Source: a virus. Taken from it: a stretch of 11,043 nucleotides of DNA. The stretch's first letter is position 1. Each line of letters opens with the position of its first letter. Below the pieces are notes generated by a model. It was not told the DNA's origin. It ran no database searches and was given only the letters and a program-made list of their open reading frames with translations. Below, in pieces: positions 1 to 6,143 of this stretch. The stretch lies in the UHGV virus genome UHGV-0098765. One strand, written 5' to 3'. A program made the position numbers and the translations under genes.

Positions 1-202
1 CTGAAAAAACTGACGTTCACTGGAGTGGTCGGTTTAGCGTTGCACCAATGCTCGATAGGATGTACCGTTTTTGAAAAACAAGTAGTTATATACTTTGTGG
101 GAGCCTATTGGGAACCCGGCGTTTTCATTTCAAGGTGTAATCCATACGCGGCTTAAGAATGAGATATAATGCGACTTTTAGTGTTCCGCTTGAGAGGCCA
201 TG

Positions 203-736
203 ATGCTTACCCTGGACGAGATAGGTCAATCAGTACGTAACAATATCCAGTTGATTATTGATCATGTCGGCTTACCTCTTGCTGTTGGTCCGCTCAGTGA
301 TGATGATTACAAGATTCTGTGTGGTGGCTATGGTGAGCTTGAATGGGACTATGCGTTAAGTACCTATGGCAACTCCAGAGAAAAGTATGAGTTCTGCATA
401 AAACTTGTTCAGCAAGGTCGGGTTCAGGGAATACCATCAGGAGCAGCAATTTGTGTTTATGGGGTTGAAGAAAACATCTTTCGTATCCATATGATCGAAA
501 GGTTTTCTAGAGAAGATGAATCTCACCCATTGAAAGGGCGCATGGTTTTACTCACTCTTATGAGTGCTTTTATATTTTGTAAAGCTGTTGAATGTAAAGT
601 TGTCCACATTGTAGAGCCAGTACCAGAACTGGTGCAGTATTACGAGTCTTTTGGTTTCCGCATGGAACAGTGCGGTTATGTGATGTCGGCAGTCATTGAT
701 GAGCTGCAGGATATCTTTCTTAAATTTGCTCAGTAG
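203..736 (+). CDS. Putative GNAT-fold N-acetyltransferase-like protein (177 aa; ORF track starts at 200)
   Basis: Intact ORF. GAGAGG at 192-197 sits 5 nt before the second ATG (203), too close to the first (200). Segment HPLKGRMVLLTLMSAFIFCKAVEC...ELVQYYESFGFR resembles GNAT motif A plus the C-terminal Y..GF motif. Possible -10 TATAAT at 165-170. Appears AT-richer than the prophage genes. Confidence 0.5.
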   Translation: MLTLDEIGQSVRNNIQLIIDHVGLPLAVGPLSDDDYKILCGGYGELEWDYALSTYGNSREKYEFCIKLVQQGRVQGIPSGAAICVYGVEENIFRIHMIERFSREDESHPLKGRMVLLTLMSAFIFCKAVECKVVHIVEPVPELVQYYESFGFRMEQCGYVMSAVIDELQDIFLKFAQ

Positions 737-932
737 GTATAGACGAGAAGGGTCTACAAATTGTAGGATACCCGTCCAGATTACCTTAAAGGTACATCTA
801 TGGCAGTCGTTTTGTGCTTAAACTACTAAGAAACGATGTCACCAATCGACATGATCGATTGGCATAAGTTAGCGAAACAAGCTAGCTTTAAAGAAAGGGT
901 TAGAGACGCCTTTACTGTCTCGGGAGTTTTCT

Positions 933-1106
933 ATGAAAGATCAAAAAGCAACCAAGCCACAGGTTAAGTTCGACACAATGAAAGCATTCGCAGGTATGGG
1001 TGCTGCTGTTGAAGTTCTGATGAAGGCTGCTCCTAATGCGTTCACTCACGCTACTGTCTCTGGTAAAGAGCAGCAGGGTAAGCTTCGTCGTCGCAAAGCA
1101 GCATGA
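933..1106 (+). CDS. Small hypothetical protein (57 aa, MKDQKATKPQVKFDTMKAFAGMGAAVEVLMKAAPNAFTHATVSGKEQQGKLRRRKAA)
   Basis: Not in the ORF track (below its length cutoff). GGGAG at 922-926 lies 6 nt before ATG 933; stop TGA 1104-1106 is followed 20 nt later by a strong intrinsic terminator. Hydrophobic core with a basic C-terminal tail. Confidence 0.45.
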   Translation: MKDQKATKPQVKFDTMKAFAGMGAAVEVLMKAAPNAFTHATVSGKEQQGKLRRRKAA

Positions 1107-1125
1107 TCATAGCTGGTGCTTTTTG

Positions 1126-1155
1126 AAAACCCGCCTTCAGGCGGGTTTTTTCTTT
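1126..1155. terminator. Bidirectional Rho-independent terminator
   Basis: AAAACCCGCC-ttca-GGCGGGTTTT followed by TTTTTTCTTT on plus; on minus the same stem is followed by UUUUCAAAA. Sits between the converging plus small ORF (stop 1106) and the minus xis-like gene (stop 1154). Confidence 0.75.
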
Positions 1156-1435
1156 AGTGATGTTCTTTGCCCTTCTGTTTGACTGTTCTGACCTGTTCCC
1201 ACTCGATACGTCCTTCTTCTCGCCTTTTGTCTATGTATTCCGCAAGATCCTGAATATTGATGCAACGTTTTGCTTTTTGTGATGTGCCGATGCGATATGT
1301 TGGAACGGGCAACTTACAAGCGTTTGCTTTTGCTTCTGCCGTGGCTGGACTCATACCAAAGTACTTTTGGCTAATTGCTGAGAGTTCAATGTTTGGGGTA
1401 TTGAATTCAGCCATCAGTAAAAACAAGGTGTTCAT
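1154..1435 (-). CDS. Excisionase-like / recombination directionality factor-like DNA-binding protein
   Basis: ORF 1154..1462; the listed start at 1462 is a GTG. Preferred start is ATG 1435 (MNTLFLL...), preceded by GGAG with 6-nt spacing. Small basic protein at the end of the early-left operon, recognised by family resemblance from memory rather than a specific motif. Confidence 0.6.
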   Translation of the reverse strand: MNTLFLLMAEFNTPNIELSAISQKYFGMSPATAEAKANACKLPVPTYRIGTSQKAKRCINIQDLAEYIDKRREEGRIEWEQVRTVKQKGKEHH

Positions 1436-1471
1436 AATTTTCTCCATCAAAACCGGCTGCACCCGGGAAAA

Positions 1472-2752: not shown

Positions 2753-3262
2753 TCACTCTCCTTTGATGCGAATGCCAGCTGCGCTTGCTGATTCTTCATA
2801 TGCGCGTTTAGCAGCGTTAATGATTGCTGCCAGTGGCGTATAGCCGCCATCCATTCGGATTGTGTTGTGGATGCCAGCCATTGTGTTGCGCAATTTTCTG
2901 TGGCTAGCAGACAGTTCTGCTATGCGCTTCTCTGCGGCTTCCATCTCAACGCGCAGCCTTCCTACCGTTAGCGCAATATCCTCGTTCTCCTGGTCACGGC
3001 GTTTGATGTATTGCTGGTTTCTTTCCCGTTCATCCAGCAGCGCCTGCACTACTTCAGGGTTGAAAGCTGCGATATAACGAGCGTTGTTCTCTGCGTTGTT
3101 CTGTCCATCAAAGCCGGTCCATTTGATAACGTCTTCACATCGTTTATCACCAGGTGTATGCACCGCATATGTACCAGTACCAGACGAAATAAATGCGACC
3201 CATTCACCCTGTGTTGCCAGTTGCGCCGCTTTACGCAGTGCCTGATAGTCAATCTTGCTCAC
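2753..3262 (-). CDS. Ead/Ea22-like family protein (169 aa from the GTG start)
   Basis: GTG 3260-3262 is preceded by AAGGAGG with 6-nt spacing and overlaps the stop of the upstream 79-aa ORF (GTGA). N-terminus SKIDYQALRKAAQLATQGEWV plus a central coiled-coil-like region match this family. The track start at 3298 is also GTG and lacks an RBS. Confidence 0.65.
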   Translation of the reverse strand: MSKIDYQALRKAAQLATQGEWVAFISSGTGTYAVHTPGDKRCEDVIKWTGFDGQNNAENNARYIAAFNPEVVQALLDERERNQQYIKRRDQENEDIALTVGRLRVEMEAAEKRIAELSASHRKLRNTMAGIHNTIRMDGGYTPLAAIINAAKRAYEESASAAGIRIKGE

Positions 3263-3498
3263 TGGTTGCCTCCTTTGCGGATCTGCGCTGCGATGCACGA
3301 AAAAAAAGACTCCCGCGTATGACTGTTAAGAGCTGGCGCGAACGCTGCGTTAAGAACGGCAGCATCACAGCCGTCATCGATATAGAGCGCAATTTTTTTC
3401 TCCAGGCGTGCTTTGGCTTCCTGCAACTGCATACCCCGGCACGCACGTGGGATATACTCAGCAATTTGAGCGATAGATTTTTCGTTCTGTTTAAACAT
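3259..3498 (-). CDS. Hypothetical prophage early protein (79 aa)
   Basis: ATG start with GAGGTGA 5 nt upstream; overlaps the stop of the upstream 67-aa ORF by 8 nt (ATGTTTAA), a translationally coupled chain. Confidence 0.55.
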   Translation of the reverse strand: MFKQNEKSIAQIAEYIPRACRGMQLQEAKARLEKKIALYIDDGCDAAVLNAAFAPALNSHTRESFFSCIAAQIRKGGNQ

Positions 3499-3694
3499 GC
3501 TTCACCTCGATCGGCTTGATGGTATCGATCAGCAGTCGGCGGCGAGTATTTTCTGCAAAGTGGCGGCGTCCGGTTTCTTTGTGGTAAAACTCGTTTTTTC
3601 CGACGACCCACATCCGCTTTGTCTGGTGCAGTTTTTTTACCTGCGGACCGTCTCGGGTGATAACAATTCCTGTATGAGTTTTTATCACGCTCAT
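3491..3694 (-). CDS. Hypothetical small basic prophage protein (67 aa)
   Basis: ATG 3692-3694 overlaps the upstream gene stop (ATGA); GGAG 9 nt upstream. Confidence 0.55.
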   Translation of the reverse strand: MSVIKTHTGIVITRDGPQVKKLHQTKRMWVVGKNEFYHKETGRRHFAENTRRRLLIDTIKPIEVKHV

Positions 3695-4053
3695 TTCTTA
3701 TTCTCCGGTGCTTTTGGCATTACTGCCCAGTGAGTGATATTGACGTTTTCAAGGTCCCCGACCTGAAATGTCCACTGCCATTCTCCGTTTTCTTTTTGCC
3801 CCCAGGTGTCCCAGAGGGAACGCCAGCCAATCAGCCAGCCTTCTCCGTTAGCATCAAATAACAGAACACTTTCATTTGCTGGCGGCAGTTCAGCTGACAC
3901 TGGTATTATTTTGTTTTCCAGTGCCGCACATTTAGCTTCAAGCGCGTCGAATTTACGTACCAGGTACTCGGCATTTGTTTCGTTCACTTTCAGATCTCGC
4001 GGTACACATTTTCCGCGAAGAAACCCTTCCATTTCGAAAACATTCATGCGCAT
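3691..4053 (-). CDS. yfdS: DUF551-like prophage protein, YfdS-like (120 aa)
   Basis: C-terminal W-rich motif (GWLIGWRSLWDTWGQ...WQWTF...ITHWAVMPKAPE) is DUF551-like. Length and position after the YfdR-like gene match, from memory, the K-12 CPS-53 gene order yfdP-yfdQ-yfdR-yfdS. Overlaps the upstream gene by 10 nt. Confidence 0.7.
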   Translation of the reverse strand: MRMNVFEMEGFLRGKCVPRDLKVNETNAEYLVRKFDALEAKCAALENKIIPVSAELPPANESVLLFDANGEGWLIGWRSLWDTWGQKENGEWQWTFQVGDLENVNITHWAVMPKAPENKK

Positions 4054-4580
4054 TTGCGTAACTCCGATAACTCGTTAAAACGTTCCATAAACATCCCGTA
4101 GGCATGGCCCGGTGCCAGTGGAATCACGTTGAACATCTCTGTTGCCGGGATGCCTTCCAGTACAGGCCAGAAAGAGCCATCATCAAGCCCGAGATCGCGG
4201 CGTTCGGTTGCCAGCATGATGAGATCGGCATATTTCACAGGTGTGCTCATAACCGGGGGTAACCCGTATTTCTCACGGATTACGGCATCTATTTTTTCTT
4301 CCATCCGTTTATAGTCAGGAAGAAGGCGTTTCAGTGGCGCCGGGATGTCCTGGCAATACGCTTCTGTTGCATCATGCATTAACGCTTCAAAAGAAAATTC
4401 CTGCGGTACCAGCTGGCTGCAAAGCACCGCATGCTGGGCGACACTGTAGAAGTGTGAAAGATGTCCTGCAAAGCGACAGATATTTGAAAGGGAAACCGCG
4501 ATATCGTTAATAACGATGTCATCTTTATTTATCTTGTCATAATAAAAATGCTTCCCAGAAAAAGTTTTAATAAATGACAT
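4044..4580 (-). CDS. yfdR: HD-domain phosphohydrolase, YfdR-like 5'-deoxynucleotidase family (178 aa)
   Basis: H..H and HD signature (HFYSVAQHAV...LMHDATEAYCQDIPAPLK). Start taken at ATG 4580 (MSFIKTF...) with GGAG 6 nt upstream; the track ORF begins 9 codons earlier without an RBS. Confidence 0.8.
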   Translation of the reverse strand: MSFIKTFSGKHFYYDKINKDDIVINDIAVSLSNICRFAGHLSHFYSVAQHAVLCSQLVPQEFSFEALMHDATEAYCQDIPAPLKRLLPDYKRMEEKIDAVIREKYGLPPVMSTPVKYADLIMLATERRDLGLDDGSFWPVLEGIPATEMFNVIPLAPGHAYGMFMERFNELSELRKCA

Positions 4581-6096: not shown

Positions 6097-6143
6097 TAAA
6101 AAGAGCGGTACCAGCCGGAAGCAAGTGTACAAACTGGTACCGC
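6097..6143 (-). terminator. Intrinsic terminator inside the PL leader, upstream of the first early-left gene
   Basis: Minus-strand RNA: GCGGUACCAG, 19-nt loop, CUGGUACCGC, then UCUUUUUACAAAAC. 10-bp perfect stem at plus 6105-6114 / 6134-6143. The U-tract region CGCUCUUUUUACAA also resembles boxA (CGCUCUUUA). Confidence 0.5.

Follow-up and report, generated by a model that had tools for sequence, protein, structure and literature searches.

A predicted acetyltransferase-fold enzyme and a small basic partner in an apparently mobile cassette at the dusA end of a lambdoid prophage

The left end of the prophage

The stretch of DNA that was analysed (11,043 nucleotides of the virus genome UHGV-0098765, referred to as the window) carries near its left end two plus-strand genes, one for a protein of 177 amino acids with a predicted GNAT acetyltransferase fold (203-736) and one for a basic protein of 57 amino acids (933-1106). 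Positions 1-1500 are around 99% identical to phage mEp460, and the window represents an E. coli lambdoid prophage. The two genes correspond to gp23 and gp24 of mEp460, where the gene order is dinI, int (on the minus strand), attP, gp23, gp24 and xis. A sequence-only reading of the window had described two plus-strand open reading frames (ORFs) that converge, with a terminator of their own, on a minus-strand xis-like gene, and this layout was recovered: the ORFs span 200-736 and 933-1106 and are followed by a terminator hairpin and by the convergent gene at 1154-1462. The same reading took the integrase to be missing from its expected place, which proved incorrect, as int lies across attP and thus at the far end of the prophage.

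The boundary between host and phage was located in an alignment of the window, the empty dusA site of E. coli K-12, the mEp460 attP and a second lysogen. Identity to K-12 dusA covers positions 1-55 and the host sequence departs at 56, whereas the mEp460 attP carries seven differences from host dusA within 1-47 and agrees fully with the window from 48 onward. The crossover core therefore lies around 48-55; this sequence, ATGCTCGA, is the sole stretch that is identical in attB (K-12), attP (mEp460) and attL. Positions 1-47 (plus strand) then constitute the host arm of attL, a 5' fragment of dusA that is annotated in RefSeq as a partial tRNA-dihydrouridine synthase, and the truncated frame reads ...PEKTDVHWSGRFSVAPMLD, followed by RMYRF and a stop (within 1-72). 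On the other side, positions 56-116 (plus strand) form a phage arm that is common to all mEp460-like phages irrespective of their cargo, and the gene pair starts 145 bp into the phage sequence. Elements with dusA-specific integrases have been described to insert in the 5' end of dusA and to supply a replacement for it (Farrugia et al. 2015, PMC4482086). The integration module is of this type: attL lies inside the dusA 5' end, a tyrosine integrase is encoded beside the mEp460 attP, and that attP brings along a diverged dusA-like sequence as the replacement 5' end.

Because host dusA ends at the att core and the pair is found between attP and xis in mEp460, the two genes are phage cargo rather than host flank. 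This agrees with the earlier placement of the pair at a prophage end where morons occur, and the comparison with the empty site that had been proposed along with it yielded the att core given above. The segment might also be read as host flank or as a housekeeping acetyltransferase locus, for which only its position at the window edge beside the host dusA fragment would speak, but this can be dismissed for all practical purposes. The pair is absent from the intact dusA locus of prophage-free K-12 and present in the packaged genome of mEp460, it occurs in just 358 out of 5426 complete E. coli genomes, and in other genera it is found inside tail, late and P2 modules.

The gene facing the pair (1154-1462, minus strand) lies outside the cassette. 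Its product belongs to the PrtN family (Pfam PF11112, E 7.6e-23) and to PHROG 1300 ('excisionase'), and is annotated as an excisionase in mEp460. Between the two transcription directions, a terminator scan identified a G+C-rich hairpin with a T-run (about 1125-1151, plus strand) that faces xis. Since this hairpin has an A-run on one flank and a T-run on the other, it could terminate transcription in both directions, i.e. of the plus-strand pair and of the convergent xis gene. At the opposite side, the dusA remnant is oriented in the same way as the cargo genes. The scan revealed no terminator between the truncated dusA fragment and the GNAT gene, so that in a lysogen the host dusA promoter might conceivably read through into the cassette.

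An acetyltransferase-fold protein and a small basic protein

The first ORF is open from position 200, which would give 178 amino acids (200-736). Nevertheless, the ATG at 203 is the likelier start, because it is preceded by a Shine-Dalgarno (SD)-like GAGAGG (192-197), the homologues begin with ML(T/S)L and RefSeq lists a protein of 177 amino acids. A perfect -10 hexamer, TATAAT (165-170, plus strand), was read from the sequence as the putative promoter of this gene; a strict consensus promoter scan did not report it. The copies from E. coli, Salmonella, Pseudescherichia and Franconibacter, which reside in unrelated contexts, retain a TAnAAT element around 30 nt ahead of the ATG.

The homologues of the 177-residue protein form around 50 clusters at 90% identity, and the ORF therefore represents a real gene and not a chance reading frame. 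The family is nevertheless small, as a profile search of 1.84 billion protein representatives recovered 94 relatives only, and those with a named source belong to the Enterobacterales and a few Shewanella. The protein has no match in Pfam, NCBIfam or among the sequences of the PDB, even at E-values of 1-10; its sole match in a sequence library is PHROG 4350, a family of unknown function. A profile search of the PDB sequences returned coiled-coil and armadillo matches only, which were judged spurious, and a scan of ten remote relatives revealed no Pfam match for them either, so that none is connected to a Pfam GNAT model.

The fold became apparent from structure prediction. GNAT proteins share a mixed alpha/beta fold with the order beta1-alpha1-alpha2-beta2-4-alpha3-beta5-alpha4-beta6; their hallmarks are a catalytic Tyr or Glu and a loop with the motif Q/R-x-x-G-x-G/A that lies between strand beta-4 and helix alpha-3 and binds the pyrophosphate of acetyl-CoA. 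The AlphaFold2 model of the protein, made with 30 homologues, reached a predicted local distance difference test (pLDDT) score of 88.7 and a predicted template modelling score of 0.87, and the modelled fold is unambiguously that of a GNAT. A Foldseek search with the model recovered 273 PDB chains at E <= 1e-3, and a search of the BFVD structures returned generic viral GNATs only. The GNAT-like nature of the enzyme, as suggested in the sequence-only reading, is thus borne out. The accompanying hint at a tRNA-acetylating toxin fared less well. The toxins TacT3, AtaT and KacT do rank with the best structural matches, but NatD, Ard1, Naa20 and RimI are also among the closest, and the predicted fold is about equally near to protein N-alpha-acetyltransferases and to tRNA-acetylating toxins, with a sequence identity of 7-15%.

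Within the family, H97 and E100 in beta-4, Y148 and G152-F153 in a YYxSFGF helix, and an HPLxGxM element in the loop between beta-4 and alpha-3 are invariant. In the alignment and the model these residues coincide with the catalytic and acetyl-CoA-binding positions of GNATs. The loop (H109-P-L-x-G113-x-M115) is invariant but non-canonical. On the basis of the model, the protein is presumably an acetyl-CoA-dependent N-acetyltransferase.

The second gene (933-1106, plus strand) is preceded by an SD sequence, GGGAG, at 922-926, and its product belongs to PHROG 2741 (unknown function). Its motifs are FDTxxxFxxMGAAVxxLxKAAP and QGKxRxxKAA-COOH. Homologues have a length of 54-59 amino acids, and down to around 30% identity they keep their length together with the reduced patterns [FY]xxMGxAxxxLxxAxP and GKx(4-5)KAA-COOH. 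An N-terminal MK.QK is conserved as well, and the lysines in QGK and KAA are invariant. The variable alignment columns are distributed over the three codon positions as 13/13/30 (58 per position). Given this third-position bias and the maintained length and motifs, the small ORF is a real coding gene. The protein lacks a Pfam domain, and neither Pfam nor NCBIfam nor PADLOC provided a match. It has an isoelectric point (pI) of 10.5, a net charge of +8 and a grand average of hydropathy (GRAVY) of -0.55. AlphaFold2 predicted short helices at residues 15-37 and disordered tails, at low confidence (pLDDT 61.5), and the protein is by this model mostly disordered. The earlier description of a hydrophobic core with an RRRK tail was therefore half right: the basic tail is there (KLRRRKAA, with a conserved -KAA end), but the supposed core is an amphipathic stretch rather than a membrane helix (maximum Kyte-Doolittle value over 19 residues, 1.01). 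C-terminal degrons for ClpX include the ...LAA of ssrA, the ...VAA of RseA and the RRKKAI of MuA (PMC8138137). The basic -AA tail of the small protein resembles these, which we take as a lead.

The properties of the two proteins open the possibility of a non-toxic pair of an enzyme and its substrate or regulator. The small protein could be acetylated by the GNAT on its N-terminus or on lysines, or it could guide the enzyme to a target that is ribosomal or bound to nucleic acid, and the pair would then serve lysogenic conversion or the development of the phage and not growth arrest. The complementary charge of the proteins (pI 4.8 versus 10.5), the protein N-terminal acetyltransferases NatD, Ard1, Naa20 and RimI among the closest folds, and the conserved MK.QK and invariant QGK/KAA lysines would all fit. 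We consider such a pair possible but not probable, and return to it where the distribution of the genes bears on it.

Linkage of the pair, its cargo slots and the structured spacer

In all 104 GNAT-homologue loci that were surveyed first, which contained 39 distinct spacers, the small gene was found on the same strand less than 400 bp downstream, and the same holds for every GNAT locus that was retrieved later. The order and strand are constant, although the spacer (77-197 nt) and the leader that it contains vary. The pairing was observed also in Hafnia, Citrobacter, Pseudescherichia, Morganella, Edwardsiella, Photorhabdus, Xenorhabdus and Shewanella. A GNAT gene lacking the small gene was never encountered, in at least six kinds of phage position, in more than 15 genera and down to 42% identity. 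In addition, the two proteins diverge in step and both families have the same narrow taxonomic range. The sequence-only reading had reserved its doubt for the case of a housekeeping acetyltransferase with no co-varying partner; what was found is a strictly co-occurring and co-diverging one.

The linkage works in one direction. The strict co-occurrence that is looked for in toxin-antitoxin pairs applies to the GNAT gene, but not in reverse to the small gene. Among the complete E. coli genomes the GNAT gene has an identity of at least 99% throughout and is intact in 357 of its 358 carriers, whereas the small gene is present in 562 genomes. Around 200 E. coli genomes thus carry the small gene without the GNAT gene, and the same situation exists in Shewanella baltica and Photorhabdus, where the loci contain no detectable remnant of the cassette GNAT. 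As judged from this distribution, the enzyme appears to depend on the small gene, whereas the small gene tolerates being alone; such a one-way linkage is expected in case an enzyme needs its partner and the orphan partner is harmless. For the enzyme-substrate pair described above, the persistence of an intact small gene without the enzyme is unfavourable, as it implies that acetylation by the GNAT is not essential to the small protein. The lack of decay in the GNAT gene, on the other hand, suits a non-toxic enzyme.

The position of the cassette differs between phages. In E. coli and Salmonella it lies between attP and xis, in Morganella next to the integrase at dusA, and in Pseudescherichia and Shewanella at a prophage end. 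In Edwardsiella, Hafnia, Citrobacter and metagenomic phages it follows a Q-type antiterminator gene and precedes the lysis genes, in Photorhabdus it sits inside a myovirus tail module, and in Edwardsiella tarda a P2-like prophage carries it between gpA and the portal gene. The latter site is a documented defence hotspot of P2 (PMC9122126, PMC13586616). The frequent location just 3' of the Q antiterminator, where transcription would be late lytic, could again be reconciled with an enzyme and a substrate that act in phage development. Four E. coli copies of the cassette reside on large plasmids (e.g. NZ_CP126947.1, 155657-155867), which are possibly phage-plasmids or contain integrated prophages.

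The cassette has, wherever it occurs, its own -10 element and terminator, lies between conserved modules and is present or absent among close relatives, as is characteristic of morons, and its 3' untranslated region (UTR) and terminator move along with it in all contexts. In view of the constant linkage, the joint divergence and the shared 3' UTR and terminator, the sequence comparisons indicate that the two genes form an autonomous moron cassette that is horizontally mobile and in which the enzyme has a co-varying partner.

The slot next to attP has other occupants too. According to blastn, positions 1-116 are common to phages with a Panacea-type and a YafO-type cargo and homology is lost at around 116-125, so that 117-919 (plus strand; promoter, GNAT gene and leader) constitutes the GNAT-type-specific part that sister phages have replaced. 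In loci L008, L010 and L108-L110 a Panacea gene together with a gene for 128/139 amino acids takes the place of 117-919, and the same was seen in the three E. coli carriers of the small gene only that were inspected. The junctions of the exchange lie at around 116 and at 920, where homology resumes exactly at the SD of the small gene; the orphan small gene is found there, stripped of its leader, 40 nt behind the Panacea operon (around 200 genomes). In another sister phage the slot holds a YafO toxin module and the small gene is lacking; in phage PhiR40_1, the gene for 179 amino acids that precedes YafO was considered as a GNAT homologue and rejected (E 0.19). In S. baltica the small gene is the last one in a slot with a canonical TacA1-GNAT pair and a HEPN module, and in some Photorhabdus it is the last one behind an Acetyltransf_3 gene and YhfG-Fic. 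Comparison of these loci suggests that the slot is a hotspot in which mostly toxin-antitoxin-type genes gather. The proposal that this is a site for toxin or defence cargo thus gains support from the Panacea and YafO modules that sister phages keep in the same slot, and the company of toxin-antitoxin and defence genes instead of developmental phage genes counts against the enzyme-substrate pair.

Further genes were observed around the cassette. Within the Q-holin slot of Hafnia (L112-L114, ~3150-4109) a gene with a RelA_SpoT domain (319-352 aa) lies directly upstream, which could represent a toxic module of the alarmone-synthetase type. Between the small gene and xis (corresponding to window ~1107-1153) there is a second insertion point, which is occupied by an HTH_3 + 2TM gene in a Salmonella relative (L007, 5381-5848) and by a CoiA-like gene in E. 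coli 13E0725 (L110, 3820-4854).

The exchanges raise the question whether the two genes belong together at all. They could be independent, adjacent morons, in which case the small gene and the terminator would, through the nucleotide conservation of the gene, anchor the slot border for the exchange of cassettes by homologous recombination, and the GNAT would be a solo enzyme with, for example, a detoxifying or counter-defence role in the manner of AcrVA5 or MccE. The small gene does end slots behind the Panacea, TacA/GNAT plus HEPN and YhfG/Fic modules, one junction falls exactly at its SD (window 920), and it has a promoter-like element and leader of its own. Moreover, among the Enterobacteriaceae copies the codons at conserved residues are identical for 71-95% in the small gene and for 37-61% in the GNAT gene, which fits with recombinational spread. 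Chance adjacency, however, should have been broken at least once, while the GNAT was never found without the small gene, and the order and strand remained constant despite the changes in spacer length and leader. We therefore regard independence of the genes as rather unlikely.

The intergenic region (737-932, plus strand) is more than a spacer. Just 3' of the GNAT stop lies a promoter-like pair, TAGACG (740-745) and TAGGAT (764-769), that is kept across genera, and it is followed by four hairpins: P1 (781-794), P2 (842-862), P3 (866-888) and P4 (903-921), the last of which adjoins the SD GGGAG. Folding of 737-932 yielded a minimum free energy of -58.6 kcal/mol (z -3.9 relative to shuffled sequences). 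In a set of 19 distinct leader sequences, 94.5% of the cells in P1-P3 were paired versus 89.1% in shuffles, and the covariation score was 0.307 versus 0.211, values that none of the 500 shuffles reached; slid controls gave 16-44% pairing. Compensatory changes occur in four pairs of P3, and P2 varies via G-U pairs that are valid on the plus-strand RNA only. The spacer between the two genes is thus a conserved structured RNA leader of around 150 nt, in which P2 and P3 are supported by covariation. Rfam contains no family for it and gave sub-threshold, terminator-like matches only.

An ORF for 43 amino acids within this region (836-967) was ruled out as coding, considering that the leader indels are not multiples of three and that the conservation tracks the hairpins. 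Between the -35-like and -10-like elements sits an inverted repeat, which reads TAGAC-N7-GTCTA in the window and is a perfect 12-bp palindrome, ACGGGATCCCGT, in most other alleles (L012-L014, L097-L107; corresponding to window 743-756). It could be an operator or the 3' stem-loop of the GNAT message. The leader is also not the prophage RNA sRNA-17, an ArcA-repressed small RNA of E. coli K1 strain RS218 that is encoded on an mEp460-like prophage (PMC7719688), as this maps to window 6105-6130. The 5' part of sRNA-17 is matched exactly at that position (plus strand), whereas the segment to which the published Northern probe corresponds is missing, so that the window seems to contain this RNA incompletely.

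Downstream of the small ORF, the conserved 3' UTR contains AGCTGGTGCTTTTTG (1111-1125, plus strand), which is complementary to codons 4-9 (942-957). RNAalifold predicted a 14-bp long-range helix between these segments with one compensatory pair (AU to GC, in two sequences), and we treat such a fold-back as a lead.

The RNA features bring to mind the type I toxin hok, and one could envisage the small gene as a regulated toxin whose message is inactivated by the long structured leader and the 5'-3' fold-back helix, the GNAT being either unrelated or an antitoxin that acts as an enzyme, as in type VII systems. The small product with its long, conserved and structured leader, the predicted helix and the unusually conserved synonymous sites of the small ORF could be explained in this way. 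Nevertheless, the idea is very improbable. The small protein is not hydrophobic, as its Kyte-Doolittle and GRAVY values make clear; a promoter scan found no antisense promoter and Rfam no small RNA. The structure test over the whole ORF was weak (97.5% paired versus 97.1%, a level reached by 12 of 500 shuffles). Furthermore, a toxin that depends on the GNAT would be hard to tolerate as a leaderless orphan behind the Panacea operon in around 200 genomes.

A possible function and its relation to known systems

The anatomy and phage origin of the locus, the GNAT fold, the one-way linkage, the mobility among slots and the conserved RNA structure are the ground on which a functional reading has to build. 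The reading that we favour, with a probability of roughly 40%, is that of a cassette that is toxin-antitoxin-like or that excludes phages by abortive infection. It is suggested by the one-way linkage, autonomy and mobility of the cassette, by its toxin-antitoxin and defence company (including the P2 hotspot and the RelA_SpoT neighbour in Hafnia), and by the combination of a GNAT fold with an intact-looking active site and a disordered, basic partner with a degron-like tail. The cassette would be organized in the order promoter, GNAT gene, second promoter-like element with leader, small gene and terminator. The acetyltransferase would be the effector and would modify an amine of some basic target, for instance a protein involved in translation or in the nucleoid, or an aminoacyl-tRNA. 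Its obligatory cognate partner would be the small protein, which could be a direct neutraliser or a regulator and may be short-lived via its ...RRRKAA tail, while the structured leader would tune its synthesis. The enzymatic activity, the physical interaction, the toxic or defensive effect and the proteolytic lability are inferred, and a toxin role is to be understood in this conditional sense.

Several observations weigh against this interpretation. The canonical architecture of a GNAT with a ribbon-helix-helix (RHH) antitoxin is absent: the partner is encoded downstream across 77-197 nt and lacks a DNA-binding domain, and no ORF or domain of the RHH/DUF1778 (TacA) kind was found upstream, in window 56-199. 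No family of PADLOC-DB v2 matches either protein at E <= 1. The acetyl-CoA loop is kept in part only, as PLKGRM. The enzyme is acidic, unlike what one would expect for a tRNA-binding toxin, and its pI of 4.8 counts weakly against direct binding of tRNA. Nor does the near-complete integrity of the GNAT gene in E. coli give a sign of toxicity-driven decay. The Enterobacteriaceae copies show an amino acid identity of 89-98% for the small protein versus 66-89% for the enzyme, and a partner that is better conserved than the enzyme, at synonymous sites too, is atypical for an antitoxin. Finally, the survival of the small gene behind unrelated toxin-antitoxin modules suggests that it may act independently of the GNAT.

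A more elaborate version, which we put forward only tentatively, would be a hitherto unrecognised three-part immunity or toxin-antitoxin system of temperate phages, in which the GNAT effector is gated by a protease-labile micro-protein and the RNA leader sets the ratio between the two. The message would then possibly fold back from its 5' to its 3' part, and the micro-protein might be a terminal component that is shared by cargo slots rich in toxin-antitoxin genes in unrelated phages.

The cassette is carried by around 7% of the complete E. coli genomes, including Shiga-toxin-producing strains of O157:H7, O111 and O145, and by many prophages of Salmonella, Enterobacter, Citrobacter, Serratia, Photorhabdus and Edwardsiella. 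It occupies slots where phages keep exclusion systems and toxin-antitoxin modules, and both of its proteins lack an annotation, a Pfam family and literature. An acetylation-based exclusion or addiction module, with a small partner outside the canonical types and with control at the RNA level, would add a new effector-partner architecture to the family of acetyltransferase toxins. It would also give access to an accessory function that is common in the prophages of pathogens, and provide a new, well-conserved structured RNA. If the genes instead encode an ordinary modifying enzyme and its substrate, they would represent two new protein families and a clean case of cassette movement between hotspots. 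Either way the cassette is a well-delimited, widespread and experimentally tractable candidate, whose function we infer from its context.

As far as known systems are concerned, the literature was searched for the accessions of both proteins, for their PHROG numbers and for defence based on GNATs, and contained nothing relevant in these searches. By its modelled fold the enzyme belongs to the GNAT superfamily, outside any Pfam family and outside the GNAT/RHH toxin-antitoxin family. Morons in lambdoid prophages that target dusA are nothing unusual; what is undescribed is this gene content combined with the partner and the leader.

The cassette shares with the type II GNAT/RHH systems (TacAT, AtaRT, KacAT, ItaRT) a GNAT-fold enzyme of around 175 amino acids, a small and mostly disordered partner and a residence on mobile DNA, and a tyrosine is conserved in the YxxxGF helix of its enzyme. 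It differs in that the enzyme is acidic and lacks a Pfam acetyltransferase signature, and in that the partner is not an upstream DUF1778/RHH antitoxin but follows downstream across a structured spacer of 77-197 nt. The canonical pair of TacA1 and Acetyltransf_1 that was found in the same slot of S. baltica is clearly a separate module. With NatD/Naa40, Ard1/Naa10 and RimI the enzyme shares 10-14% identity. Unlike these, it carries an additional helix at the N-terminus, its last strand is replaced by a C-terminal helix, and it is phage-borne and tied to a dedicated small partner.

The resemblance to hok/sok is confined to the small size of the ORF, the long and structured 5' region and the pairing that is predicted for the 5' part with the 3' end. 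The product of the cassette is basic and hydrophilic and not a membrane peptide, no antisense RNA was found, and the weakly supported helix spans codons 4-9 instead of the SD. Panacea (PanA) systems are similar in location, as they occupy the same slot and are followed by the same 57-aa gene, both in the around 200 E. coli genomes and in phages Lys8385Vzw and SKA5; they consist, however, of unrelated proteins (a SocA_Panacea domain protein and a partner of 128/139 amino acids), with the antitoxin first and no leader. A parallel in organization is found in the morons and hotspots of temperate phages, such as old/tin between gpA and gpQ of P2, the lambdoid Q-S slot and the cargo of dusA elements. 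Like these, the cassette is an autonomous unit of promoter, genes and terminator between conserved modules that varies among sister phages, and it occupies the P2 hotspot in Edwardsiella (PMC9122126) and the Q-holin slot in Hafnia, Citrobacter and Edwardsiella; unlike them, it matches no defence system catalogued in PADLOC and carries a conserved structured RNA leader.

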